From: Candidatus Peregrinibacteria bacterium CG10_big_fil_rev_8_21_14_0_10_55_24 | GTDB lineage: Bacteria > Patescibacteriota > Gracilibacteria > Peribacterales > Peribacteraceae | DNA: 64,000 bases | Assembly (NCBI GenBank): GCA_002772745.1 | Contig: PFDV01000008.1 | Location: 21,828-85,827, forward strand | Reading direction: 5' to 3' | Part shown: one piece after another, positions 32,676 to 56,169 of the stretch | Layout of the letters: each line of letters begins with the position of its first letter | Numbering within the stretch: the stretch's first letter is position 1 | Notes under the pieces: model-generated | What the model was told of the DNA's origin: nothing | Databases searched by the model: none | The model's input: the letters and a program-made list of their open reading frames with translations, nothing else | Program-made: the position numbers and the translations under genes

Positions 32676-32702
32676 GCCAAAGAAGTGCTACAATGAAAGG
32701 AA

Positions 32703-34834: not shown

Positions 34835-35110
34835 TCAAGGAGTCCGGTTGCACACGCGCACGAGTTTGAGGCGCGCAGTCTTGCCCGCGACGATTTCGAC
34901 GTTCGCACGGGGAACATGGAGCTCCTCCGCGAGAAAGTGAATGAGTTCCGCATTCGCCTTCCCCCTTTCCGCAGGAGCGGCAACGGCAATCTTCACGCTC
35001 TCATCGGCCATGATCTCCATGACGCGCGTCTTGGCCGCAGAGGGAACCGTGCGGACGGTGAATTGCACTCTACCATCCTCTGCCAACATATCACGGTACG
35101 GCTGGAGCAT
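34835..35110 (-). CDS. DUF167 (YggU) family protein
   Basis: 91 aa. FTVRTVPSAAKTRV...VKIAVAAPAERGKANAELIHFLAEEL is typical of DUF167. Confidence 0.75.
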   Translation of the reverse strand: MLQPYRDMLAEDGRVQFTVRTVPSAAKTRVMEIMADESVKIAVAAPAERGKANAELIHFLAEELHVPRANVEIVAGKTARLKLVRVCNRTP

Positions 35111-35115
35111 AGTGA

Positions 35116-35325
35116 TTAGCGCACGCGCGGTGAGAGAGGGTTATGCCCCTCTCGAGCTTGGAGCAACCGCTCACATGCTCTCCACACATGAATGCTCAAC
35201 ATGCTCCGAAGTTCCCGTGGCTGGTCCTGGAGAATCTGCGACATTTCTATGACGTCTGGCAGTTGTGCATGCTCGTCAACGAATGCCTGCGCAGCCTTCT
35301 GAGGATCGAAGAGAGAACAAACCAT
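35116..35325 (-). CDS. Possible small hypothetical protein (69 aa)
   Basis: Track ORF, 5 nt upstream of the DUF167 gene. A competing plus-strand ORF exists at 35143..35328. Confidence 0.3.
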   Translation of the reverse strand: MVCSLFDPQKAAQAFVDEHAQLPDVIEMSQILQDQPRELRSMLSIHVWRACERLLQAREGHNPLSPRVR

Positions 35326-35399: not shown

Positions 35400-35435
35400 G
35401 GGGCTCCTCTGCGGCGCAAGCCACGGAGGAGCCCC
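35400..35435 (-). terminator. Perfect 10-bp hairpin (GGGGCTCCTC / GAGGAGCCCC, 16-nt loop) downstream of small ORF 35446..35667
   Basis: Read directly from the sequence. The trailing U-tract is weak (GATTCTTC). Confidence 0.45.
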
Positions 35436-35445
35436 TTCGCCCTTG

Positions 35446-35667
35446 CTACGAGGATGGCGGCAACTGGCCTCTGGGCTTGGGATTGCTCCGGCCCTCGGAC
35501 CAGCCGACCCGGTAGCCCCTCAAGTAGGCCTCATTGCCGAAGAAAGGTTCCCCCTTCTCTGGCGGGGCCCACCGTCCGAGCCACCCATCCTGTTTCCCAG
35601 CATGGAAGCCCGACTCGTAGGAATCGGCGTCTTCCTGCCGGGGAGCATCACCCTGATCGCAGGACAT
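35446..35667 (-). CDS. Small hypothetical protein (73 aa) with an internal Y/W-G repeat
   Basis: ATG 35667 is preceded by a canonical AAGGAGG Shine-Dalgarno (reverse complement of 35674..35680) with a 6-nt spacer. It is followed by a perfect 10-bp hairpin (35400..35435). SYESGFHAGKQDGW resembles NEAYLRGYRVGW. Confidence 0.45.
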   Translation of the reverse strand: MSCDQGDAPRQEDADSYESGFHAGKQDGWLGRWAPPEKGEPFFGNEAYLRGYRVGWSEGRSNPKPRGQLPPSS

Positions 35668-35822
35668 CCTTGACCTCCTTTCAGAAGTTTGACGGACGAA
35701 TCTGCCGCGCTCCAAGCGAGACAGATGTCTTCCCACAGTGGCAAAGAGCGAAGGAGACAGTATAGGAAATCGAATAACTTTTCATTTATGCTTTTTCCGA
35801 TTTAAGCTTTTCTTGGTGTCCA

Positions 35823-36323
35823 CTAATTTATTTTGTTGAGAAGGTGACCAAACCATGCGACAAGTTCTGTAACCTTTCCCGCATGGAGCAATGGAAGCGG
35901 CGTTGGATGCTCAATCCGAAATATTTTTCCGTTTTCGAGCGTTACTCTGACGCTATTGTCGCCCATGACATCAATCTTTGAAACAGGAGAATCATACGTT
36001 TTCTTGCCGTAATTCCAAAGCGTCGGACCACCACATCCGTACTGGCTCAAATATGTCTTGCGACCATCGAATACGTACTCTCTTTGACCAAGCGTTGTAG
36101 CTCCGAGTTTTTTACCAACAACGATGTCATCATAGAAACACCCCGATAAAGTTCCTGAACCAATTCCATTTTGATTGCCGCACTCCTGAATAATTACCGA
36201 TACGGGAATACCATGTATTTTAAAAGCTTTCGATGGATACCTATCACAAGACTCAAGAACTTCATCTGGGTTTCCAACTTCTGGCGATTTGTACGGATTT
36301 ACTTCGGATATCTTCTCTGTCAT
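35823..36323 (-). CDS. Hypothetical protein (166 aa) encoded in an A+T-rich cassette
   Basis: It is the only long ORF in a compositionally distinct segment. It has its own GTGACA-17-TATTCT promoter-like site and an AAAGGAA ribosome-binding-like element. No family recognised. Confidence 0.6.
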   Translation of the reverse strand: MTEKISEVNPYKSPEVGNPDEVLESCDRYPSKAFKIHGIPVSVIIQECGNQNGIGSGTLSGCFYDDIVVGKKLGATTLGQREYVFDGRKTYLSQYGCGGPTLWNYGKKTYDSPVSKIDVMGDNSVRVTLENGKIFRIEHPTPLPLLHAGKVTELVAWFGHLLNKIN

Positions 36324-36328
36324 AAACT

Positions 36329-36343
36329 AAAGGAATTTCCTTT
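36329..36343. promoter_or_regulatory. Perfect palindrome AAAGGAA-T-TTCCTTT between the -10-like box and the start codon of the cassette gene (possible operator)
   Basis: Read directly from the sequence. It lies 5 nt upstream of ATG 36323 on the gene strand. Confidence 0.4.
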
Positions 36344-36344
36344 C

Positions 36345-36373
36345 AGAATAGCACAATTCACCATCTATGTCAC
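36345..36373 (-). promoter_or_regulatory. Sigma-70-like promoter GTGACA-17-TATTCT for the cassette gene
   Basis: Hexamers and the 17-nt spacing counted by hand on the minus strand. Confidence 0.45.
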
Positions 36374-36421
36374 TAGCCACCCACTACCAAGAAAAGCTTA
36401 AAGCGCCTAACACGCAGCGTA

Positions 36422-37132
36422 CTACAGCACATGTTCTCTCCTCCATCGCTCTATTTCGGCGTGATTGCCGTTGAGGAGCACATCAGGAACTGCGAATTCC
36501 TCAAATTTCTCCGGGCGCGTGTAGTGGGGGTATTCCCGCTTGCGCTTGAGACATGCAGAGAAGCTCTCCTCGTGAGCGGATTCATCCTTCCCCAGCACCC
36601 CAGGAATCTGCCGTGCCACGGCATCAATGAGCACCATGGCGGGGAGTTCCCCGCCCGTGAGTACGTAGTCGCCGATCGAAATCTCCTCATCGATCCACCC
36701 GCCGTCGATGACGCGCTGATCAATGCCTTCGTAGTGTCCGCAGAGCAGGAGCAGATGATCGTACGATCGAGCCATGCGCTCAACGCGCGTTTGCGTAAGA
36801 CGCTTACCACGCGGGGAGAGGAAAATCCTGTGCGGACGCTCCGCGCTTCCCGCACTTCCCTTACCTTCCTTACCTGCCGAACCTTCTGCACCTCCAGCAC
36901 CTTCCCCACTCACCTCCTCAATCGCCCGCACCACCACATCCGCTCTGAGAACCATACCCGCCCCGCCCCCGTACGGCCGGTCGTCGACTTGGCGGTAGCG
37001 ACCCAAACCCCACTGCCGCAAGTCGTGGCAATGGATGGAAATCCGCCCCTCCTCCTGCGCCCGCTTGAGAATGCTCTCGGTCAGGGGCCCTGTGAACATG
37101 CCTGGGAACAGCGTCAAGATGTCGATGCGCAT
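36422..37132 (-). CDS. trmD: tRNA (guanine37-N1)-methyltransferase, with an in-frame low-complexity insertion
   Basis: [69 protein letters not shown] and NHAEIERWR. The insertion is [24 protein letters not shown]. Confidence 0.95.
36837..36908 (+). repeat. 9-bp-period array inside the trmD coding sequence (8 units, in frame)
   Basis: Units: cgctccgcg cttcccgca cttccctta ccttcctta cctgccgaa ccttctgca cctccagca ccttcccca. Positions 36881..36905 are identical to 63153..63177 (25 nt). Confidence 0.9.
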
Positions 37133-37140
37133 GCGGAATC

Positions 37141-37148
37141 AGTATAGA
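37141..37148. promoter_or_regulatory. Overlapping divergent -10-like boxes: TATACT for trmD (minus) and TATAGA for the GT2 gene (plus)
   Basis: The sequence agtataga sits in the 26-nt trmD/GT2 intergenic spacer, 8 nt from ATG 37132 and 10 nt from ATG 37159. Confidence 0.4.
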
Positions 37149-37158
37149 GTAGGACCCC

Positions 37159-38127
37159 ATGGAGAAAGCCATGTTTTCCGTTCTCATTCCCACGTTCAAC
37201 CCACGCCCGGAGCACCTGCGCCAGGCGCTTGAACGCTTGCGCGCGCAAACGGAGACACGGTGGCAAGCGTTGGTCCATGACGATGCGTCGAATGTCGATG
37301 TCCGAGCAATGGTCGAACCGTACCTGAGCGATCCGCGAATGACGTTCCGACATTCCGAGAAACGCCTGGGGATCGGCGGAAACTGGAATGCGTGCGTAGC
37401 GCAGTCTCAAGAACCGATCGTTGCATTCCTATTCCAAGACGACTGGTGGGAACCGGAGTACCTGGAACGCGCACTCGCGGTCTTTCGGAAGCACGAGGAT
37501 ATCGGAATCGCCGCGCTCGCACACCACTACGCTATTGAGGATGACATCGTCACTGCGCAGGAATACCGGGAGCTTGAGGAGCTACGCAAACGCGAGCTCA
37601 CTCCAGGCAGGCAAGAAGGACGAGCGTTCCTCGAACAATGGGTGGAACGCGGGCTCAGGCCGAACATCATCGGTGAGCCGGATTTCGTCGTCATGCGCAG
37701 GAGTCTCATCGAAGAAACCGGCGCCTTTCACGAAGAGATGCCTCAGTCGCTGGACGCCGAGTACTGGGTACGCGCGCTCCGGCACACAAACTGGTACTTT
37801 GTCCCTGAGTTGTGCGGCACGTTCCGCGTGCATAGCGAAGGGGCGACTGCCCAAAATCGCGAACAGGGACAGGGGCTCTTCGACCGCTTCCGCATGCTCC
37901 AGCAATATATCGATGCGCTCCCCTCCGGGGAGCGCAAAAGAGCGGCGCTGCGCGCCCAGGTGAAACAGTTCCAAGAGATGGCTCAAAAATACCGTGGCAA
38001 ACGCGACCGCGGGGACACGATCACTCTGCGCGGTGCCGGCGCGCTCAAGCGGTTCTGTTTGCGCCACCCCCTTGTCGCCCTGCACACGCTGTGGCAGGTA
38101 CAGCGCAAGAACGCATCGAAAGCCTAA
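37159..38127 (+). CDS. Family 2 glycosyltransferase
   Basis: FSVLIPTFNPRPEHLRQALERLRAQT, VHDDASN and FLFQDDWW (the DxD region). Confidence 0.85.
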   Translation: MEKAMFSVLIPTFNPRPEHLRQALERLRAQTETRWQALVHDDASNVDVRAMVEPYLSDPRMTFRHSEKRLGIGGNWNACVAQSQEPIVAFLFQDDWWEPEYLERALAVFRKHEDIGIAALAHHYAIEDDIVTAQEYRELEELRKRELTPGRQEGRAFLEQWVERGLRPNIIGEPDFVVMRRSLIEETGAFHEEMPQSLDAEYWVRALRHTNWYFVPELCGTFRVHSEGATAQNREQGQGLFDRFRMLQQYIDALPSGERKRAALRAQVKQFQEMAQKYRGKRDRGDTITLRGAGALKRFCLRHPLVALHTLWQVQRKNASKA

Positions 38128-44271: not shown

Positions 44272-45237
44272 ATGCAACTCTCCAAACTCTTTCGCCGCAT
44301 TGTGGAACTGGGAATCGAAGCAGACCCCCGCCCAAAGAAGGAGATTGAGAACATTCTCAGAAAGCATGCCGAGCATAAGAAGAAACTTGAAGGCAATGAG
44401 AAGGAGCTCTTCGACGACGAGCGCCTGTGGAATCCGTACAGCGACTCGCGCATTTTGCACGGAAAAGGAACGGAAGAGGTGAAGTCCCTCATTGTGGGAA
44501 TCGACGTGGAAACCCCCGAGTTGATGCTGGTGGATCACCTCATGCGTGGAGGAATGAAGATTGACGCCGTGATGATGCACCATCCGGAAGGACGAGCGCT
44601 CGCCGACCTGGAGAAAGTTCTCCCCATGCAGATTGACATCCTCCATAGTGTGGGAGTTCCGGAAAATATCGCCGAAGGACAACTCAGGCCCCGCATGGAA
44701 CGCGTCTGGCGCGCCATTCATGCCGACAACCTGTTTCGCTCGCAACGCGCAGCCGAGCTCCTGAAGATCACGGCATTCAACTGCCACACGCCATCGGATA
44801 ACTTCGTCTGGAGGTTCATTGAGAAAACGATCTGCACAAAGCGATTCGACACCCTCGGTGAAATTCTCAAGGCACTCCTCGAGATCCCCGAATACAAGGA
44901 GTACGCACGACGCGGTAATCCTCCCATTATCGTCAACGGCGCCAAATACAGCCGACCGGGGAAAGTGGTTGCCACCGAATTCACGGGCGGCACCAACGGC
45001 CCGGAGGAGTTCATCGAATCGCAGGGACGCGCCGGCGTGGGAACCATCCTGACGATGCACGCAACGGAGAAAGCGCTGGAAAAAGCAAAGGAACACCACG
45101 TGAATGTCATCCAGTGCAGCCACATTGCCTCGGACTCCATCGGCTTAAACCTCCTCCTCGACCGGCTGGTTAAAGAAGAGAAAATGCTCACTGTGCAAGA
45201 ATTCTCCGGTTTCGTACGTGTGAAACGGTCGAAGTAG
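44272..45237 (+). CDS. NIF3/DUF34-family (GTP cyclohydrolase 1 type 2-like) metal-binding protein
   Basis: DAVMMHHPEG and HIASDSIGLN, the NIF3-type His/Asp motifs. The start is moved to ATG 44272 to avoid the divergent flavodoxin gene. Confidence 0.75.
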   Translation: MQLSKLFRRIVELGIEADPRPKKEIENILRKHAEHKKKLEGNEKELFDDERLWNPYSDSRILHGKGTEEVKSLIVGIDVETPELMLVDHLMRGGMKIDAVMMHHPEGRALADLEKVLPMQIDILHSVGVPENIAEGQLRPRMERVWRAIHADNLFRSQRAAELLKITAFNCHTPSDNFVWRFIEKTICTKRFDTLGEILKALLEIPEYKEYARRGNPPIIVNGAKYSRPGKVVATEFTGGTNGPEEFIESQGRAGVGTILTMHATEKALEKAKEHHVNVIQCSHIASDSIGLNLLLDRLVKEEKMLTVQEFSGFVRVKRSK

Positions 45238-45441
45238 CTCTTCCAATGCCGTTGGAAATCCTGTCAATGACAAGGAAGCCATGCAGACTCCGGAAAACTA
45301 CAGAGAGTTTGCTCAAGGAGCCTTGATTTTTGAGAAGTGCGCAGGTAGAGTCCGCGCGCTTTGACCCTCCTTACAATGAAACGCGCACAATCCTCTTCCA
45401 TAAGCCAAAAAATGACATCTGCAACACCATTTACAGCCATC

Positions 45442-45756
45442 ATGGATACAGAGGAACAAGAAGCGAAACGTGTCAAACAGGAACTCGACGCGATGCAACG
45501 CGAACGAGAGGAAGTGGAAAAGGCGATTGCAGAGAAGGAGATACAAGCGGAGGAGTCGCTCCGGAAGGAAGCGCGTGAGGACCTCCAGAAGTACAAGGAC
45601 TCCGAGCTTTCCTTCATTCTGAAAACTGCGGAAATCGAAGCGGAGCGAGAGTGCTCTCAACTTGCAGAGCGTTCGGCCAAACATACAGAAGAACAGGTGA
45701 AGGAATTGGTTACAGGAATGGTTCGTCCTGATGCTTCCCTCTTTCCTGACGTATAG
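45442..45756 (+). CDS. Coiled-coil protein, candidate V-ATPase peripheral-stalk subunit (G/H-like)
   Basis: About 104 aa, Glu/Lys-rich and helical (EEQEAKRVKQELDAMQREREEVEKAIAEKE). It lies immediately upstream of subunit I, as in other V/A-ATPase operons. Confidence 0.45.
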   Translation: MDTEEQEAKRVKQELDAMQREREEVEKAIAEKEIQAEESLRKEAREDLQKYKDSELSFILKTAEIEAERECSQLAERSAKHTEEQVKELVTGMVRPDASLFPDV

Positions 45757-45758
45757 GT

Positions 45759-47693
45759 ATGGCAGTCGTACCGATGCAAAAAGTGGCCGTCATCGCTCAC
45801 GCATCGGCGCGTGAGGATCTGATTGAGGCCCTGCATCGCGAGGGAGCCATGGAGCTCTCTGAGACAAAACATCCCGTGCCCGTCGACCACACAGAAGTTA
45901 ATTTTCGCTCTGCCGAGCTTACATTCGCCATCGATATTCTCAAGAATTTCGCATCGAAGGAAACGCAGAAAGCCGTGGAAAAGCCGACGACCTTCGACCA
46001 AGTCCTGTTCGCAACACAGCACACCGATACGCGCGGCATCATTGATGAACTCCACCGATTAGAGGAGGAGGACACCGAAGCGGAGCACCATCGCAGAGAA
46101 GCGCAAATTCTCGCTCAGAAACTGGAACCCTGGACAGCACTTTCGTGTCCGCTTTCCGTTCCTCGATCCACACAGTGGACCGTACGAATTTTCGGCACAT
46201 TGGCCGTAGAGCGCCTCCCTGCTCTGCGTTCACTGCTCTCCGCGGAGCTCCCCCGCACAGAGCTTGAAGAAATACAGCAATCTTCCAACCTGTTCTCCCT
46301 GGTCGCACACGTGTGGAAAGAGGATGTTGAACGCTTCATGCAGATTGCAACGACAGAAGGATGGACCGATGTGGAGCTGCCTTCCCTTGATGCCCCTCCC
46401 CGTGTCCTCCATGAACAAGCGCTGATGGGAGTAAAGGAAATGGAGAGCATCCGGCGACGCAACACCGAAGCACGCGCTCGTCTGTCGGTAGAACTCCCCA
46501 ATCTTGTGAAAGTGCGACAGTTCCTGCACTGGTTGGATGAGAAACAATCCGCCCGCGAAGCCATGTCCCCCACGATGGACACCGTTACACTGCTCGGTTG
46601 GATCCCACGCGATTCTCTGGTCCTTTTGGAGGATCGTTTACATCGTGTTTCTCCTGCCATTGCAGTGCTCAAGGTCAAACCCGACGAGGGAGAGGACGCT
46701 CCCGTGCTCCTCAAAAACCCACGGTTTGCGACCCCCTTTGAAAGCGTTACAAATCTCTACGGTCTTCCTCTCTACGGAGAGAGTGATCCCACACTGGCCC
46801 TTCTGCCATTTTTCGCTCTCTACTTTGCGCTCTGTCTGACAGATTCCGGCTATGGGGCCGTGCTTGCCATCGTCTTTGGAACGGTGTTGTGGAAGACCAA
46901 GAAGAGCATTGCCGAAGCGCGTCTTCTTTGGCTCCTCTTTCTTGTGGGTATACTCACGTTCTTCGTGAGTATTCCCTTCGGCGGATGGTTCGGTTTGGCG
47001 CCGGAGCAAGTTCCATCCTTCCTCACAAAAACCACTGCGGATGGCAGCCTCTTCTTCCGAGGACAGGTTTGGAACTTGAACACGCAGAGCGGTATTACGT
47101 TCCTGCAAAACCTTTCACTGATCCTCGGTATCACCCACCTGTTCTTCGGAATGTTCCTTGCCGGCTACCACAAATGGATCCACGGGAAAAAAGCTGAGGC
47201 CCTCTGGACAAACTTCACCCCGCACCTGCTCTTAGGGAGCGTGCTCTTTCTGGTTTTTGCCCCTGCCGAAATGAAGGATACAGCCCGCTACGTGCTCTAT
47301 GGAGCAGTCGCTCTCCTGGTTTGGGGTAAAGGATACGGAACGAAGTGGTTCCTTCGTCCGATCATAGGTGCGCTGGGCGTGATGAATCTCTCCATCGGAC
47401 TCCTGAGCAACAGCCTAAGCTACCTGCGCATCCTGGCACTGGGACTCGTCACTGGAGCAATCGCCATGGCCGTGAACCAGGTCGCCGTGGAGATGGGAAA
47501 ATTGTTCCCCGTATGGATCGGTGTTCCGGTGATCGTCGTAATCTTCCTCGGCGGACATCTGGTGAGTATCGCCCTCAATACACTGGGCAGCTTCATCCAC
47601 TCAGGCCGCCTGCAATTCATCGAATTCTTCAGTCAATTCTTTGAAGGTGGCGGTCGTCCGTTCTCCCCGTTCCGCCGTTCGGTACGTCTTTGA
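45759..47693 (+). CDS. ntpI: V-type ATPase subunit I (a-subunit, stator/proton channel)
   Basis: 644 aa. Soluble N-terminal half and a polytopic C-terminal half with SYLRILALGL (the essential Arg) and FIHSGRLQFIEFFSQFFEGGG. Confidence 0.85.
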   Translation: MAVVPMQKVAVIAHASAREDLIEALHREGAMELSETKHPVPVDHTEVNFRSAELTFAIDILKNFASKETQKAVEKPTTFDQVLFATQHTDTRGIIDELHRLEEEDTEAEHHRREAQILAQKLEPWTALSCPLSVPRSTQWTVRIFGTLAVERLPALRSLLSAELPRTELEEIQQSSNLFSLVAHVWKEDVERFMQIATTEGWTDVELPSLDAPPRVLHEQALMGVKEMESIRRRNTEARARLSVELPNLVKVRQFLHWLDEKQSAREAMSPTMDTVTLLGWIPRDSLVLLEDRLHRVSPAIAVLKVKPDEGEDAPVLLKNPRFATPFESVTNLYGLPLYGESDPTLALLPFFALYFALCLTDSGYGAVLAIVFGTVLWKTKKSIAEARLLWLLFLVGILTFFVSIPFGGWFGLAPEQVPSFLTKTTADGSLFFRGQVWNLNTQSGITFLQNLSLILGITHLFFGMFLAGYHKWIHGKKAEALWTNFTPHLLLGSVLFLVFAPAEMKDTARYVLYGAVALLVWGKGYGTKWFLRPIIGALGVMNLSIGLLSNSLSYLRILALGLVTGAIAMAVNQVAVEMGKLFPVWIGVPVIVVIFLGGHLVSIALNTLGSFIHSGRLQFIEFFSQFFEGGGRPFSPFRRSVRL

Positions 47694-47725
47694 CTCTGCG
47701 TTTATTTTCTTCCTTTCCTCATCCC

Positions 47726-48346
47726 ATGAAACGCTTTATTTCTCCCCGCCATGAGCTGCGTCGAATGGTTCCCGTCCTCATAGCAGCAGGCACCCTCGCT
47801 CCGCTCGTCGCGCTGGCGCAAGAACCGGCAGCTGCCGAGGTGGTCACGCATGCAGGAGCAATCCAGTGGGGCCTTGGCCTCGCATTCCTCGGTGCCGCCC
47901 TTGCGACATTCCTTGCCTGTCTTGGCTCCATTCTTGGCGTCGGTGCCATGGGTCAGGCCGGTGCCGGTCTCCTTACCGAAAAGCCGGATCTTGCCGGCAA
48001 GGTCATCACCCTCATGGTGCTTCCCGGCTCCCAGGGACTCTACGGCATGGTGATTTCCCTGCTCTTCATCTTCAATTACGGCCCGGTAATCTCGGGCGAA
48101 GTTTCCATCAGCGTGAGTCAGGGATTCATCCTCCTCATGGCCTGCTTGCCCGTTGCCATCACCTGTCTCACATCAGGACCCTACCAATCCAAAGTCTGTG
48201 CTGCGGGTCTCCATATGCTCGCTCGCGACGACAAGCTCGCCGGTCGCGTGATCACGATGGCCGCTCTCGTGGAAACATACGCACTGCTCGGATTCCTGAT
48301 CTCTTTCTTCATGATGAACAGTTTCCGGGCTGGCATCATCGGCTAA
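47726..48346 (+). CDS. ntpK: V-type ATPase subunit K (c-ring proteolipid, double hairpin)
   Basis: LPGSQGLYGMV and AALVETYALLGFLISF resemble Enterococcus hirae NtpK. The start is taken at ATG 47726 (track start 47690). Confidence 0.85.
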   Translation: MKRFISPRHELRRMVPVLIAAGTLAPLVALAQEPAAAEVVTHAGAIQWGLGLAFLGAALATFLACLGSILGVGAMGQAGAGLLTEKPDLAGKVITLMVLPGSQGLYGMVISLLFIFNYGPVISGEVSISVSQGFILLMACLPVAITCLTSGPYQSKVCAAGLHMLARDDKLAGRVITMAALVETYALLGFLISFFMMNSFRAGIIG

Positions 48347-48377
48347 TTGCTTTCCCCCTCTCGTTCCCTCCGTTCCC

Positions 48378-48938
48378 ATGGCTCTTGCAGACATTCTCGT
48401 CGCAATCTCATCACACGCAGACCAGCGTATCGCAGAGGCGCGGACCGTCCATCAGAAACACCTCACGCAGTTGCGCGAGGCGAGCGAGCGAGCGATTGCC
48501 GGGAAGAAGCAATCCATTGCCCAGCAGAAGGAGCAGCGCAAGAATCAGCTGAAAGCCAAAGCAGAGAATCATGCAGCGATGGTGAAGAGGAATGCGCTCC
48601 TTAGAAAGAAGCGCGAACTTTTGGATAGCACCTACGCCGCTGTCACCGAGAAGCTCTCCGCCCTTCCGCCAAACACCGTAGAGCCGCTTTTACGTGCTTG
48701 CCTGAAATCCATCAGAGGGAAGGGGATCATTCACCCTGCACGCAAGCACGCCGATCTGCTCAAGCGCTTGGCAGACTCCGCTCAGTTCTCCATGGGCGAA
48801 CCGATCGACGCAGCCGGAGGATTCTTATTTTCCTCCCTAAAACAGGAACAGGATTGCACGTTTGAGCATTTGATTTCCGAAGTTCTGCGTCCGCAGACGG
48901 AACTCGAGGTTTCCCGTTCGCTCTTCACCGCAGCGTAA
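48378..48938 (+). CDS. ntpE: V-type ATPase subunit E
   Basis: 186 aa. Long N-terminal helix, globular C-terminus (GGFLFSS...FEHLI), and operon position. Confidence 0.7.
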   Translation: MALADILVAISSHADQRIAEARTVHQKHLTQLREASERAIAGKKQSIAQQKEQRKNQLKAKAENHAAMVKRNALLRKKRELLDSTYAAVTEKLSALPPNTVEPLLRACLKSIRGKGIIHPARKHADLLKRLADSAQFSMGEPIDAAGGFLFSSLKQEQDCTFEHLISEVLRPQTELEVSRSLFTAA

Positions 48939-49949
48939 GTGCAAGAATTGCGTTCCCTCATCGGCCAGCATTTCGCCTTTGCGCACGGACGCATGGGCGT
49001 GCTGCGCCATATGCTCCTTACACAAGCGGATGTCGACCGCCTGCTGGGGGCACACTCCCTGAAAGAAACGGAGAATATCCTCACAGAACTCAAACTCACG
49101 GACATCATCGACCAAGGCATCAGTGATGGCCACAGTATGCTCGAGGCCATCGGCGCCTGGATGCGCAGGGAAGTGGAAGTCATGTCGCATCCCATCCACC
49201 GAGTGATATTCCACATCCTATGGCTCCAGGAAGATGCACCACTGCTCGCACTCTTACTCAAACAGCATCACAACCTTACGAGAGAACGCACGGAGGAGCC
49301 TACGATCGGCATCAGTGCCTATGATCCTGTTGCCCTGCAGACACTGGTCCACAAAGGCGTGAGTGGCACGCTCCCCTCACATCTCGTTGCGTTTGTGGAA
49401 CAGGTGAAAGCGTTCGACCAGCCATCCCCTCGCACGGTGGATACTGCCATTGCAAATTACATTGCCAATCTCCAGCTCCGCCTGGCCCGCGCAAGCGGCT
49501 CTTTTGCAATTCGACGCTTCGTGACGCACCAGATCGATCTTATGAATATCCGCACTGCCCTGCGCCTTAGGGATGAGGACCGCAAGGCGTCGCTCCCCTA
49601 CCTCCTTGCAGGGGGAACCGTCTCGCGTACAGGGCTTGCGGGTAACGAGAAGGAGATCGCAACGGCGATCGCGCGCTCGCCCATGGGGTTTTCTCTGCCT
49701 GCGGATTCTTCGGAAACTTTTGCAGACCCCATCGCCTTCGAGCAAGCCGCCGCCCACATCATGGCTGCCGATATCTCCGCCATGTGGAATGTGCCGCTCT
49801 CGATTGAACCTCTGTTTGCTTTTGCAGCAATGACACTTTCACATCTCCGACTCGTACGGACCATCCTCATCGCCAAGGCAAATGCCATCGGGCCGCAAGA
49901 GATCAAACGCATGCTCCCCCCCTTCATTTCCGCCACGCGCTTCCTCTAA
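48939..49949 (+). CDS. ntpC: V-type ATPase subunit C (eukaryotic d homologue)
   Basis: 336 aa, all-helical, with DLMNIRTALRL typical of the family. Operon position. GTG start directly after the subunit E stop. Confidence 0.75.
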   Translation: MQELRSLIGQHFAFAHGRMGVLRHMLLTQADVDRLLGAHSLKETENILTELKLTDIIDQGISDGHSMLEAIGAWMRREVEVMSHPIHRVIFHILWLQEDAPLLALLLKQHHNLTRERTEEPTIGISAYDPVALQTLVHKGVSGTLPSHLVAFVEQVKAFDQPSPRTVDTAIANYIANLQLRLARASGSFAIRRFVTHQIDLMNIRTALRLRDEDRKASLPYLLAGGTVSRTGLAGNEKEIATAIARSPMGFSLPADSSETFADPIAFEQAAAHIMAADISAMWNVPLSIEPLFAFAAMTLSHLRLVRTILIAKANAIGPQEIKRMLPPFISATRFL

Positions 49950-50299
49950 TGCAGTATCGCATCGCCATCATCGGTTCCCGTGATACCGTTGCGGGCTTCG
50001 CCCTCCTGGGAGTGGACGTCGTGCCGGTCATCGGCCCGCAGCAAGCTGTGGAGGAACTCTTTCGTCTGAAGAGGGAGCTGACAAAGGACGAAGTCGGTGT
50101 GGAGCGCAACACGTATGCCATTGTTTTTATCAGTGAAGACCTCGCGAGCGGGATTTCTCCGGAAGATGAGAAGAAGCTCGCTCGCGGGGCCTTGCCCGCT
50201 ATCATTCCCCTCCCTTCCCACCGCGGCTCCACGGGCTACGGTCTCTCCAGACTCAAACGTATCGTGGAACGCGCCGTTGGATCGGACATCCTGAAGTAA
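49949..50299 (+). CDS. V-type ATPase subunit F
   Basis: 116 aa. MQYRIAIIGSRDTVAGFALLGVDV is the typical subunit F N-terminus. Confidence 0.8.
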   Translation: MQYRIAIIGSRDTVAGFALLGVDVVPVIGPQQAVEELFRLKRELTKDEVGVERNTYAIVFISEDLASGISPEDEKKLARGALPAIIPLPSHRGSTGYGLSRLKRIVERAVGSDILK

Positions 50300-50335
50300 T
50301 TCCCCAACCCCAAGTACTCCATTCCCCAGTCCACC

Positions 50336-52156
50336 ATGTCCACTCATCCCACTATCGTCAAGGTCGCCGGCCCACTCGTCGTCGCCAAAGGCATGAAGGA
50401 TGCCAAGATGTACGAAGTCGTGCGCGTCTCGAAGGAAAACCTCATTGGCGAGGTGGTCGAGCTGCACGGCGACCGCGCTTCCATTCAGGTCTACGAGGAA
50501 ACAAGTGGCATTGGCCCGGGGGAACCGATCAAATGCACCGGCGAAACGCTCTCGGTGGAACTCGCACCCGGACTCCTCATGTCCTTCTACGACGGCATCC
50601 AGCGCCCCTTGGAACTGATTGAGCAGGAAGCGAAGAGTCCGTACATCACTCGCGGTATCAACGTGCCGGGTTTAGACCGAACGCGCCGATGGGAGTTTAA
50701 GGCAGTTGCGAAACCGGGGGACACGATGGAGGAAGGAGACATTCTAGGAACCGTGCAGGAAACGACGCTCATTGAGCACAAGATCATGGTGCCTCCGGGA
50801 GTGCGCGGAACGGTGAAGACTATCGTTTCCGGTTCTTTCGTCATTGAAGACATCATCGCCGTTCTGGATACCCCCCAGGGCAAGAAGGAGATCACCATGC
50901 TGCAACGCTGGCCGATCCGCATTCCGCGTCCCTGTAAGAAGAAACTCATCCCAACGGAACCGCTCGTTACGGGGACCCGTATCCTCGACACACTCTTCCC
51001 TGTCGCCCGTGGAGGAGCAGGAGCTATCCCCGGCCCCTTTGGAGCGGGGAAGACCGTGACGCAACAGAGCTTGGCAAAGTTCTGCGATGCGAAGGTGATT
51101 GTCTACATCGGTTGCGGCGAGCGCGGCAACGAGATGACCGACGTACTCAAGGAGTTCCCGGAACTTGAGGACCCGAACTCCGGCGAACCGCTCATGAAAC
51201 GCACAGTGCTCATTGCAAATACGAGCAACATGCCCGTTGCCGCCCGCGAAGCGAGCGTCTACACGGGAATCACTATCGCGGAGTACTACCGTGATATGGG
51301 GTACGACGTCGCCCTGATGGCCGACTCCACGTCACGCTGGGCGGAAGCCATGCGCGAAATGTCCGGCCGCCTGGAGGAGATGCCCGGCGAGGAAGGTTAT
51401 CCCGCGTACCTTGGATCTCGCACCGCCGGCTTCTATGAGCGTGCGGGCTCCGTTCAATGTCTGGGTGATGATCAACGCAAAGGCTCGCTCACGGTCATCG
51501 GTGCCGTGTCACCTCCGGGGGGAGACTTTTCGGAACCCGTGACGCAGAACACGCTGCGCGTCACCAAAGTGTTCTGGGCACTGGACGCAAAACTCGCCTA
51601 CAAGCGACACTTCCCTTCCATTAACTGGCTGCAGAGTTACTCGCTCTACGCAGACAACTTAGGAAGTTACTATTCGAAGGAAATTGCGAGTGACTTCTCC
51701 CAGAATCGCAACAGAGCCATGGGCATCCTGCAGGAGGAAAGTAAGCTGGAGGAAATCGTGCGTCTGGTAGGAACGGATGCGCTCTCTCCCAAGGAGCAAC
51801 TCACATTGGAAACCGCAAAGATGATCCGCGAGGATTTCCTCTTCCAGAACGCCTTTGACCGCGTAGATGCCTACACGTCGCTGCGGAAGCAATACCGCAT
51901 TTTAAGAGCAATCCTCACCTTCATGGATGCGGCAAAACCTGTCATTGAGCAGGAGGATTTTGAATTCTCCAAACTGCAACAGATGCCGGTAAAAGAGGAG
52001 ATCAGTAAGGCACACTTCATTGCCGAAAAGGAAGTCGAGGAGAAGTTCGATGCCCTAGAGGAGAAAATCCGCAAGCAAGCCGCCACGTTGCGCATCCAGA
52101 AAATGGGAACAATGCGGTCCTCCGATGATCGCGAATTCTCTTCCGTTTCCGCCTGA
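50336..52156 (+). CDS. ntpA: V-type ATPase catalytic subunit A
   Basis: Walker [10 protein letters not shown], the non-homologous insert region, [16 protein letters not shown] and [10 protein letters not shown]. Confidence 0.95.
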
Positions 52157-52180
52157 CCCTAGCCCTTAACCCTTTCACTC

Positions 52181-53611
52181 ATGTCCACTGCTTACAAGAC
52201 TGTCACCGATATCGCCGGGCCGCTCCTCATGGTTGATGGAGTGGAAGGCGTAACGTACGACGAGCTCTGCGAGGTAGAACTCGTAAGCGGCCGCAAGATC
52301 CTCGGGAAGGTGCTTGAATCCCGCGAGGGCGTTGCCGTAGTGCAACTCTTTGAATCCGCACAGGGTGCGGCAACGGAGGGCACCAAGGTTCGATTTTTGG
52401 CGCGCGCGTTCCAAATCGGCGTTTCCGAGGACATCCTTGGTCGTGTGTTCTCCGGATCGGGCCGCCCCATCGATGGAGGCCCGGACATCGTCCCCGAGAA
52501 AAGGCTCGACATTAACGGAGTTCCCATCAATCCATTCACACGCGAGTACCCGGATGACTTCATCCAAACGGGCATCTCTACCATCGATGTTCTCAATACG
52601 CTCGTACGCGGACAGAAACTGCCTATCTTCTCCGGAGCGGGCCTCCCCCATAACCAGCTCGCTGCCATGATCGCACGCCAGGCCCGCGTGCTCAATCGCG
52701 AGGAAGTGGAGAGTGGCAAGGCGGCGGAAGGGAACGAAGGCGCAAAGGAGAGCGGAGAGAAATTCGCAGTGGTCTTCGCAGCTATGGGTGTGACCTTCGA
52801 GGAAGCGCAGTACTTTCAACAAGAATTCGAGCGTACCGGCGCTCTCGCACGTGCCGTTCTCTTTGTAAACACGGCCGATAATCCGGTCGTCGAACGCATT
52901 GCCACCCCGCGTTTGGCGCTCACGACTGCGGAATACCTGGCTTTCGAGAAAGGCTACCACGTGACCGTGATTCTTACGGATATGACCAACTACTGCGAGG
53001 CGTTGCGAGAAGTTTCCGCCGCCCGCAAAGAGGTCCCCGGCCGTCGCGGCTATCCCGGCTACCTCTACACCGACCTTGCAACGATCTACGAACGTGCGGG
53101 ACGTATCCGCGGAAAGGAGGGATCCATCACGCAGATCCCGATCCTTACGATGCCAGAGGACGATGTGACGCATCCCATTCCGGACCTGACAGGCTACATC
53201 ACCGAAGGGCAGATCCGTTTGGACCGCGGCCTACACCAGAAGGGCATCTTCCCGCCGGTTATTCCGATGGGATCGCTCTCTCGCCTCAAGGGAAAAGCCC
53301 AAGGAGAGGGCAAAACGCGAGCGGACCACAGCGGATTGGATGCTCAGCTTACTGCCGCCTACGCACGTGGATCCGAGGTGCGCGAACTTGCGGTGATTCT
53401 CGGTGAGTCATCGCTCAATGAGGTAGATAAGACGTACCTGAAATTCGCTGATCGCTTCGAGAAGGAATTCATCACACAGGGCGAGCAGGAGAATCGTTCC
53501 ATTTTCCTGTCACTTGCGATTGGATGGGATCTCCTTACAGAACTCCCGAAGGAGGAGCTCAAACGGGTGAAACCTCAGCACATCGAACAGTACCTCAAGA
53601 AGCAATCCTAA
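52181..53611 (+). CDS. ntpB: V-type ATPase subunit B, with an in-frame low-complexity insertion
   Basis: [40 protein letters not shown] and [17 protein letters not shown]. The insertion [21 protein letters not shown] lies before FAVVFAAMG. Confidence 0.95.
52700..52762 (+). repeat. 9-bp-period purine-strand array inside the V-ATPase B coding sequence (7 units, codon-aligned)
   Basis: Units: gaggaagtg gagagtggc aaggcggcg gaagggaac gaaggcgca aaggagagc ggagagaaa, which translate to [21 protein letters not shown]. Confidence 0.75.
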
Positions 53612-53616
53612 CACTT

Positions 53617-54381
53617 GTGACTATCCCCAATCTCTTCTCCCTCATCGGCACCTCCTGGGACTTCTTCCGTAAGCAACCCGTTCTCAACGGCGTGCTTCTT
53701 TGGTTCATCGCCCTACCGATGATGGCCATGACACTCATCGACATGGCCACAGAGGCATTTCCGGTATTTCAGGATATTACAAACCGTGGCGTTATCTTAG
53801 GAGAAACGGATTTTCGCCCACTCCTCGCCTATATCGTCATCGAGATTCTCCTGTCGCTTGTCATGCTCTGGGGAATCGCCTGCATACTCTTGGTGGGAAA
53901 GCGGCTCACGGTGAACAGGGCGGGCCGAACGCGTTCCTCGCTCAAGACAGTACGCAAGGAAGCTGTCGCATTCATTCTCCCTCTCCTCCTCACATCAATC
54001 CTACGGAGCTGTTTCACATTTTTGTGGGCGTTGCTCTTCATCGTACCGGGCGTGATCTACTACATCCGAACGATGTTCTACCACGTCGCTCTCGTCTGCG
54101 AAGGTCATCCGTACCGCTCCGCCCTGCAGAGGAGTTCCCAGATTGTGCGTGGGGCCACCTGGAAGGCTTTGGGTGCGATGCTTGGATTGAGCGTGGTGTT
54201 GTTCTTTCCTGTGATCATGATTGCGAGCATTCTCGACACGATCGCCCAGCGTTTGGATCCACGGCTACTTGTCGCTACTGCGGTGATTGATAGCGGACTT
54301 TTTGCCATCGTCCTCGTGCTCTTCACTATTTCGATGATTCTGCTCTATAACGAGCTGAAGAAAACTTCCCCCTCTGCGTAA
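53617..54381 (+). CDS. Polytopic membrane protein (DUF975/YciC-like topology) embedded in the V-ATPase operon
   Basis: GTG 53617 lies 6 nt after the subunit B stop. About 6 hydrophobic helices. It ends 5 nt before subunit D. Confidence 0.55.
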   Translation: MTIPNLFSLIGTSWDFFRKQPVLNGVLLWFIALPMMAMTLIDMATEAFPVFQDITNRGVILGETDFRPLLAYIVIEILLSLVMLWGIACILLVGKRLTVNRAGRTRSSLKTVRKEAVAFILPLLLTSILRSCFTFLWALLFIVPGVIYYIRTMFYHVALVCEGHPYRSALQRSSQIVRGATWKALGAMLGLSVVLFFPVIMIASILDTIAQRLDPRLLVATAVIDSGLFAIVLVLFTISMILLYNELKKTSPSA

Positions 54382-54386
54382 ACCCC

Positions 54387-55016
54387 ATGGCTCTCCTTCG
54401 CGTCAGTCCCACCCGTATGGTCCTCATGGACCTCAAGCGCCGCACCAAGTCGGCGCAGCGAGGCCATAAGCTGCTCAAGGACAAACAGGACGGGCTCATG
54501 CAGCAATTCATGAGTATCATCCGTACGGCAAAGGATGTAAGAGAAAAAGTGGAAACGCAGGTAGGTGAAGCATTTCGCGCCTTCCTCATGGCTTCGGTCT
54601 GGCTGACAGACACGGAGCTTAAAAACGCGCTTGCCAGTCCCCAGGCAAAGATCCGCCTGCAGGTTCAGACAAAGAACGTGATGAGTGTTCGCATTCCACT
54701 GTTCACCATCGAAAAGGAGGGCAACCCGCTGAGCTATGGTTTTTCGGGTACGAATGCTCTGCTCGACCACGCTATCCGGGCGTTTGACGAACTCTTCACC
54801 GTACTCATCGAACTCGCACAAATCGAGAAACAGGCGGAGAGCATGGCTATCGAGCTCGAGACGACCCGCAGACGCGTAAATGCGCTGGAACATAAGATGA
54901 TCCCCGACCTCAAGGAAACGGTGAAGTACATCACCATGAAACTCGGCGAAGCCGAACGCGCCGGCATCATCGCCACCATGCGGATCAAGGCAAGCCTGGA
55001 GAAGCAGGAAAAGTAG
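54387..55016 (+). CDS. ntpD: V-type ATPase subunit D (central stalk)
   Basis: VSPTRMVLMDLKRRTKSAQRGHKLLKDKQD and RRVNALEHKMIP are canonical subunit D motifs. Confidence 0.9.
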   Translation: MALLRVSPTRMVLMDLKRRTKSAQRGHKLLKDKQDGLMQQFMSIIRTAKDVREKVETQVGEAFRAFLMASVWLTDTELKNALASPQAKIRLQVQTKNVMSVRIPLFTIEKEGNPLSYGFSGTNALLDHAIRAFDELFTVLIELAQIEKQAESMAIELETTRRRVNALEHKMIPDLKETVKYITMKLGEAERAGIIATMRIKASLEKQEK

Positions 55017-56139: not shown

Positions 56140-56169
56140 AGGCAAAAGAAAAAGGAGGAAATTCCTCCT
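56140..56169 (-). terminator. Intrinsic terminator or attenuator hairpin right after the infC stop, upstream of rpmI
   Basis: Minus strand reads AGGAGG-AATTT-CCTCCT followed by TTTTCTTTT. Confidence 0.5.

Follow-up and report, generated by a model that had tools for sequence, protein, structure and literature searches.

In a 64-kb stretch of the genome of a Candidatus Peribacteria bacterium, a member of the candidate phyla radiation (CPR), a cassette of 602 bp lies between trmD and the small gene p73. It carries a single gene, ORF166, and is bracketed by a perfect 17-bp inverted repeat (IR). The whole stretch, in the following called the window, has an overall G+C content of 56.1%. The cassette is a well-documented but ordinary small acquired islet with an anatomy resembling that of the mobile insertion cassettes (MICs), in an uncultured CPR bacterium of groundwater type. 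Its horizontal acquisition is held with high confidence. The complete account, according to which an islet of about 0.6 kb was recently acquired in single copy at an accessory slot and the IRs are the stranded ends of a MIC-like element, is put forward tentatively. The features of the locus are the following, given from trmD downwards:

36422-37132, minus strand: trmD (PF01746, E 1.7e-51), which bounds the slot upstream and is co-oriented with ORF166
36386-36402: right IR arm, ACCAAGAAAAGCTTAAA on the plus strand, with its outer end 19 nt past the trmD stop codon and at the compositional boundary
36345-36373, minus strand: sigma-70-type promoter match GTGACA-17-TATTCT with a TG extended -10 element (9 of 12 consensus matches), a putative promoter
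36329-36343: 7-1-7 palindrome AAAGGAA-A-TTCCTTT between the -10 box and the ATG, a putative operator
35823-36323, minus strand: ORF166, orphan gene of 166 amino acids, from ATG to TAG
35801-35817: left IR arm, TTTAAGCTTTTCTTGGT, 5 nt past the ORF166 stop codon
35743-35800: A+T-rich tail outside the left arm, within the low-G+C block
35446-35667, minus strand: p73, small lineage-specific gene that is host-like in G+C and has GGAGG as its ribosome-binding site, downstream border of the slot
35116-35325: p69, next after p73
34835-35110: DUF167 gene, next after p69

The arrangement is compact. Read on the minus strand, the trmD stop codon is followed by 19 nt, the first arm, 12 nt, the hexamers GTGACA-17-TATTCT, 1 nt, the palindrome, 5 nt and ORF166, and beyond the gene by 5 nt, the second arm and 133 nt up to the p73 ATG. 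The promoter match is thus situated interior to the right arm, and the IR packs promoter, reading frame and stop codon tightly, with 12 nt to the -35 box at one end and 5 nt to the stop codon at the other. An earlier note on this DNA had described the perfect repeat, an A+T-rich interior, a single 166-aa reading frame of no known family and the GTGACA-17-TATTCT promoter match, and all of these were recovered in the present analysis, the promoter match with its TG extension.

In base composition the cassette stands out clearly from its surroundings. With 41.7% G+C it is the lowest 600-bp stretch of the window (z = -5.4), so that the compositional difference is significant in a window-based analysis. 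A likelihood fit with two change points delimits a low-G+C block at 35743-36402 (41% vs 59%, log-likelihood ratio 32.9). On the right this block stops at the outer end of the IR arm, and on the left it reaches about 58 bp past the arm, with a support interval of 35664-35774. The tail at 35743-35800 either came with the insert or is A+T-rich target or intergenic sequence in front of p73; ordinary intergenic DNA of the window averages 52% G+C. Shuffling the segment yields a stop-free frame as long as 166 codons in 0.15% of cases, and this rarity, together with the codon-position pattern (GC1 0.51, GC2 0.39, GC3 0.38), indicates that the reading frame of ORF166 is real. The GC3 value lies well apart from the 0.57-0.76 of ten neighbouring genes.

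The distribution of the cassette was followed in related genomes. A TrmD scan of species-representative genomes gave about 66 genomes of Candidatus Peribacteria / Peregrinibacteria (61-72% identity), and no TrmD between 73% and 100% identity was present in a large protein database. The flanks are syntenic in about 65 Peribacteria genomes, where a GT2 gene diverges from trmD, which is followed by DUF167, the thioredoxin-like Trx4, WecG and p105. Among the 59 genomes with both genes at the locus, 30 have a trmD-DUF167 gap of at most 175 bp (often 0-40 bp), and in the other 29 the gap measures 275-1750 bp and is filled with genes. These fillers belong to small unrelated families, namely an SLH-domain protein (8 genomes), an EamA-type membrane protein (3 genomes) and several orphans, and have host-like G+C. 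The junction is a recurrent accessory-gene slot within a conserved neighbourhood of envelope-related genes, and relatives show trmD next to DUF167 as its ancestral state. ORF166 is absent from all 66 related Peribacteria loci. Within the slot of the window, p73 and p69 are older residents, since their G+C is that of the host and a few genomes contain faint relatives of them, and ORF166 is the newcomer. Because foreign composition and codon usage go together with a restriction to one species at an ancestrally closed junction, the cassette can be regarded with high confidence as horizontally acquired, which agrees with the earlier proposal of an acquired module with its own expression signals.

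The right arm is the exact reverse complement of the left arm over 17 nt, and when one mismatch is allowed the repeat grows to 20 nt (35798-35817 / 36386-36405). In a search within 5 kb, no longer inverted repeat was found anywhere in the window. When the window was block-shuffled with local composition kept, a perfect IR of at least 17 nt within 2 kb appeared in one of 60 shuffled 64-kb windows, and none of 100 shuffles of the trmD-DUF167 interval reached 17 nt, the longest repeat being 12 nt. The IR is accordingly unlikely to be due to chance, at about 2% window-wide and far less at its exact location, although not astronomically so. One could still regard the repeat as coincidental and the low G+C as the property of a native gene, either fast-evolving or newly arisen as an orphan; the one shuffled window with such a repeat and the presence of other orphans in the slot of relatives speak for this. 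However, the repeat brackets the most deviant 600 bp of the window, a GC3 of 0.38 among neighbours at 0.57-0.76 would be hard to reach in place, the interval shuffles never go beyond 12 nt and the orphans of the relatives have host-like G+C, so that this explanation is very unlikely. An 11-nt direct repeat, TCCTTTCAGAA (35676-35686 / 36338-36348), was considered as a target duplication and rejected: it lies off the compositional borders, chance alone would give about 0.6 repeats of this kind in 2.2 kb, and the sequence represents the ribosome-binding region of two genes.

For the species itself, twelve contigs carrying exactly ORF166 were read, and further contigs were reached via p73 and trmD. 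All have the cassette at the same locus and in the same orientation, and they are 99.7-100% identical to the window overall; neither an empty site nor an inverted form was found among these same-species contigs. The gene content of the window was surveyed by the Pfam families recorded for called genes at positions ~5,500 to 64,000 (about 58 kb). Housekeeping and envelope functions prevail, with folate synthesis, SecDF, a V-type ATPase, pyruvate:ferredoxin oxidoreductase, glycosyltransferases and translation factors, and no transposase, integrase or recombinase family occurs among these genes, which upholds the earlier statement that neither a transposase nor an integrase is present, also with respect to the cassette interior. 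These data bear on the idea of an invertible switch, in which a recombinase would flip the 568 bp between the arms and reverse ORF166 together with its promoter in the manner of phase variation. As in fimS, hin and the Bacteroides invertons, short IRs (here 17-20 bp) surround a promoter-bearing segment of a few hundred bp, and the neighbourhood is rich in envelope-glycan genes (GT2, WecG, Wzy_C, epimerase). In contrast to those systems, a single orientation is seen in all 10 ORF166 places and in all assembled contigs reached via p73 or trmD, a recombinase is missing from the window calls, and the foreign composition would be left unexplained. A switch of this kind is therefore exceedingly unlikely.

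Among the known elements closest to the cassette are the MICs, which are defined by two inverted repeats without a transposase nearby and usually show a target duplication (PMC3913671). Like MIC231 of Bacillus cereus and the mic elements of qnrD and qnrS2, the cassette consists of one promoter-bearing passenger gene between short IRs, has no transposase inside or nearby according to the window calls, and falls within a size of about 0.6-1.5 kb. It differs from MICs in that no clear target duplication, cognate insertion sequence (IS) or second copy was found, in that its passenger is an orphan and in that it resides in a CPR host in whose 64-kb window no mobile-element genes occur among those called. 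Moreover, its repeat is perfect, unlike that of the qnrD mic element with six mismatches in 24 bp. Further copies or a partner IS were looked for and not found in the window or at the listed viral and metagenome matches to the 17-mer, and for this reason the cassette is not filed as a member of the MICs. It also shares with small genomic islets an atypical composition, the restriction to a single lineage and a junction which holds different genes across relatives. Compared with typical islands it is far smaller, lacks an adjoining tRNA gene and an integrase, and has a perfect IR instead of direct att-type repeats. An integron gene cassette, in which a promoterless reading frame is followed by a single attC site next to an integron integrase, was considered and rejected: here the gene is preceded by a promoter match of its own, repeats stand on both sides of it, and no integrase occurs among the called genes.

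On this basis the following course of events is proposed. A foreign islet of about 0.6 kb would have entered the trmD-DUF167 junction once, bringing with it ORF166, its own extended -10 promoter and the palindrome over the expected transcription start. The IRs would be the terminal repeats of a transposase-less, IS-derived cassette, the transposase having been supplied in trans for the single insertion, after which the cassette was left stranded. Each arm ends on TTAA as its outermost bases, and a palindromic TTAA/TA target duplication could hide within the repeat. A MIC-like origin of the repeats is suggested by the tight packing, by arms which are as A+T-rich as the insert (29% G+C) and by the right boundary of the block at the outer end of the arm. 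Although far from certain, this origin is plausible and is preferred to the alternatives.

Several observations weigh against this account. At the left side the overhang of about 58 bp means that the repeat is not clearly terminal there. A non-palindromic direct repeat is missing outside the arms, whether these are taken as 17 or as 20 nt, just as the earlier note had seen no obvious target-site duplication. The window contains the two arms only and no further copy, and a cognate IS with matching ends is not known. Single occurrences of the exact 17-mer were found in each of seven viral contigs and at least 120 metagenome stretches; among the matches listed none has a second arm with up to two mismatches and none is similar to the window, and three, all unrelated sequences, have a three-mismatch partner within 1 kb. 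As the median G+C of the loci listed is 38%, these matches look like chance occurrences of an A+T-rich 17-mer. The comparison of the trmD-DUF167 interval in relatives gave a species-restricted cassette in a variable slot, but no precise empty site could be aligned, the nearest sampled relatives having a TrmD at most 73% identical. Finally, the cassette interior shows zero base differences among all species contigs, so that variation gives no information on selection or on mobility. The cassette is probably a recent insertion, and nothing shows that it is still able to move. The designation as a mobile, MITE-like cassette, which had been offered previously, is thus not sustained by a single copy in the window without a second arm at the 17-mer matches listed, without a transposase or an unambiguous target duplication, and with identical contigs in one orientation.

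The principal alternative starts from a host hairpin and makes use of two further features, both located between the arms:

35820-35824: CCACT, left copy of a direct repeat, 2 nt inside the left arm and overlapping the ORF166 stop codon
36381-36385: CCACT, right copy, directly adjoining the right arm on its inner side and paired with 35820-35824

According to this alternative a hairpin with a 17-bp stem and the 7-nt loop GTCCACT stood after trmD, and foreign DNA was captured in the loop, perhaps when the hairpin broke or through an element that targets loops, with the inner CCACT pair as a 5-bp target duplication. IS1397 and ISKpn1 insert into the loops of palindromic units (REP/BIME sequences). 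As with these, the arms of the target would flank the insert as an IR, and hairpins do exist at this place in relatives. In contrast to IS1397 and ISKpn1, the insert has no transposase, and the repeat does not belong to a family of repeated palindromes in the window. The short trmD-DUF167 spacers of relatives contain long near-perfect hairpins of -29 to -65 kcal/mol (loci L030, L012, L023 and L022). In L030 (5020-5088) a stem of about 17 bp with a 7-nt loop and -30.8 kcal/mol lies right after trmD, and the hairpins of L012 (1693-1821) and L023 (6670-6743) have -43.0 and -29.5 kcal/mol, respectively. Those of L012 and L022 (1934-2108) are made of short tandem motifs, GAATACT and GGGGTAGG, and the spacer hairpins are without a clear U-tract; they may represent non-canonical terminators or palindromic elements.

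Besides the near-perfect hairpins right after trmD in the short-gap relatives L030, L012 and L023, capture in a hairpin would agree with the CCACT pair, with the lack of a duplication outside the repeat and with the lack of another copy of the repeat in the window or at the 17-mer matches listed. On the other hand, the pair was noticed post hoc and has a chance of about 2%, and its overlap with the ORF166 stop codon would require the junction to fall precisely where the gene ends. The arms resemble the insert in their low G+C, while the host's own hairpin at 35400-35435 is G+C-rich. Apart from the IR, the window contains no perfect stem of 12 bp or more that would be closed by a short loop, and the hairpins of relatives are not homologous in sequence to the 17-bp repeat. 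Hairpin capture is hence considered unlikely. In the slots of 24 relatives that are filled with genes, no bracketing IR beyond chance was found except for a 13-nt pair in L049. The host hairpin mentioned above lies in the p73-p69 spacer just past the p73 stop codon, has 16-nt arms with 88% complementarity and a 4-nt loop, and is possibly a transcript-end structure in the host's own style.

Returning to the proposed acquisition of a MIC-like islet, the expression signals of the cassette deserve a closer look. At most start sites of the host a -10-like hexamer precedes the ATG by 8-10 nt and a Shine-Dalgarno (SD) sequence is missing, as exemplified by TATACT 8 nt upstream of trmD. At ORF166 the -10 box is found 21 nt before the ATG, a layout unlike the leaderless style of the host. 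The surrounding genes had been described as leaderless in style, which is mostly right; at p73, however, a canonical GGAGG precedes the ATG by 6 nt, and the neighbourhood is therefore not uniformly leaderless. The 7-1-7 palindrome is present as described before, but since eight such palindromes occur in the window it is unremarkable by itself, and its 5' arm, the SD-like AAGGA, is 13 nt away from the ATG compared with the 6-nt spacing of GGAGG at p73. Judged by its position over the expected transcription start, the palindrome is a possible operator. The trmD and GT2 genes are divergent with start codons only 26 bp apart (37133-37158), and both starts have the -10-like hexamer 8-10 nt before the ATG without a Shine-Dalgarno sequence. 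This arrangement would imply leaderless messages whose promoters overlap the opposite gene.

No terminator-like site was found on the coding strand between 35000 and 37300, nor is there a terminator hairpin at the arms, which are without notable local hairpins of any kind. The islet is co-oriented with the operon, so that transcription would be expected to read through into p73, p69 and DUF167, and orientation and missing terminator would fit a need to preserve expression of the downstream operon. Read-through also opens the way for a role of the IR at the level of RNA. In a transcript continuing from trmD the arms (17-20 bp) could pair and loop out ORF166, and the duplex could act as an RNase III-type processing site which separates the trmD, ORF166 and downstream messages, or as a stabiliser of the message. 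The long-range stem is indeed formed in the minimum-energy as well as the centroid fold of the 758-nt read-through RNA, and the contiguity of trmD and DUF167 in relatives suggests one operon. Such pairing is, however, inherent to a perfect repeat, and the overall fold is not unusual (z = -1.6). Furthermore, with the promoter of the cassette inside the right arm its own transcript would be devoid of the 5' arm, a loop of 568 nt across a translated reading frame is unfavourable, and homologues from which covariation could be read do not exist. An RNA function as the reason for the repeat is thus improbable.

The ORF166 protein (18.3 kDa, pI 6.9) is predicted to be soluble, has no hydrophobic or membrane segment and contains four cysteines. 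Neither Pfam, PHROGs, PADLOC nor NCBIfam gave a match at E <= 0.1, and among the PDB sequences nothing was significant, the best hit being an unrelated fusion protein (E = 0.016). A word-indexed search of 5.8 billion proteins returned no relative besides ORF166 itself. When 1.84 billion cluster representatives were scanned exhaustively with HMMER, ORF166 itself and P0002, a six-fold FG-GAP repeat protein, were found, the latter at E = 1e-4. Residues 20-56 of ORF166 (37 residues) resemble one repeat unit of P0002 including both cysteines, but the match is weak, and a profile of the P0002 repeats aligned to ORF166 with an hhalign probability of 50%. Since ORF166 has neither the calcium-binding DxDxDG (DGDG) loop nor a Pfam FG-GAP match at E <= 0.1, it was not accepted as an FG-GAP repeat protein. 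The AlphaFold2 single-sequence model consists mostly of beta strands at low confidence (mean pLDDT 36). Searches by tblastn against phages and plasmids and a scan of IMG/VR proteins revealed nothing significant, with one phage match at E = 0.2, so that a donor or homologue of the cassette was found neither in the protein sets of 5.8 and 1.84 billion sequences nor in phages, plasmids or IMG/VR. For the role in immunity, anti-defence or as a toxin that had been speculated about, PADLOC and PHROGs gave nothing, and there is no evidence either way. It is hardly to be expected that ORF166 and the repeats form a minimal autonomous mobile element, in which the orphan would be a new DNA-binding recombinase or transposase acting on the repeats. 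If this were true, the element would be among the smallest self-mobilising units known and CPR-specific, and the protein would perhaps act on its own palindromic operator as well.

CPR bacteria have tiny, streamlined genomes. A clean, un-ameliorated insertion of a single gene amid a conserved operon shows that such genomes still acquire foreign genes, and the cassette is chiefly of value in marking gene flow into a streamlined genome and in drawing attention to a slot of repeated insertion. If the repeats are transposon ends, they would point to a gene-delivery vehicle in a lineage for which none has been documented; should they instead be the two halves of a former hairpin stem, the cassette would be an example of gene capture at palindromes. 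The ORF166 protein is a candidate for structural study. In the published analysis of complete Peribacteria genomes, transposases and mobile elements are unmentioned (PMC4736985).

Some additional observations concern the motifs around the ORF166 start. The palindromic core AGGAAATTCCT (36329-36343) is repeated exactly once in the window, at 56154-56168 just past infC (IF3), as GGAGGAAATTCCTCC. When up to one mismatch is allowed it occurs at 7 sites vs 2 expected, of which the five one-mismatch sites are counted regardless of gene calls. Another motif, TGAAAGGA, stands directly before the start codons of p105, p73 and ORF166 (32694-32701, 35676-35683 and 36338-36345) and follows TGCTAnnnT at p105 and ORF166. 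It is present four times in the window vs 2.1 expected; these genes may have a ribosome-binding or promoter-proximal motif in common, or the recurrence may be due to chance.

Signs of variation between strains are present at both sides of the cassette. Contig L006 (sample ERZ27293412) matches the window base for base between 35451 and 37204 and then shows 23 differences in its last 105 bases (about 22%). This sharp breakpoint (37205-37309, in the 5' part of the GT2 gene) is that of a coexisting strain which has another glycosyltransferase allele and the same trmD and cassette. At the other side, L007, L008 and L009, three short and independent contigs which come from different samples, end at 35460 or 35461 inside p73, and L006 ends at 35451. 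The shared contig ends near 35460 suggest a strain-variable point or a branch of the assembly graph inside or just after p73.

Elsewhere in the window a complete V/A-type ATPase operon (subunits I, c, AC39, F, A, B and D; 45774-55016) adjoins the genes for pyruvate:ferredoxin oxidoreductase. Upstream of this operon lies the only other low-G+C block of the window (45161-45780, minimum 49%), which covers an unannotated gene of 87 aa. An inverted repeat of 20 nt with 90% identity (45680-45699 / 47136-47155) spans the start of the gene for ATPase subunit I.

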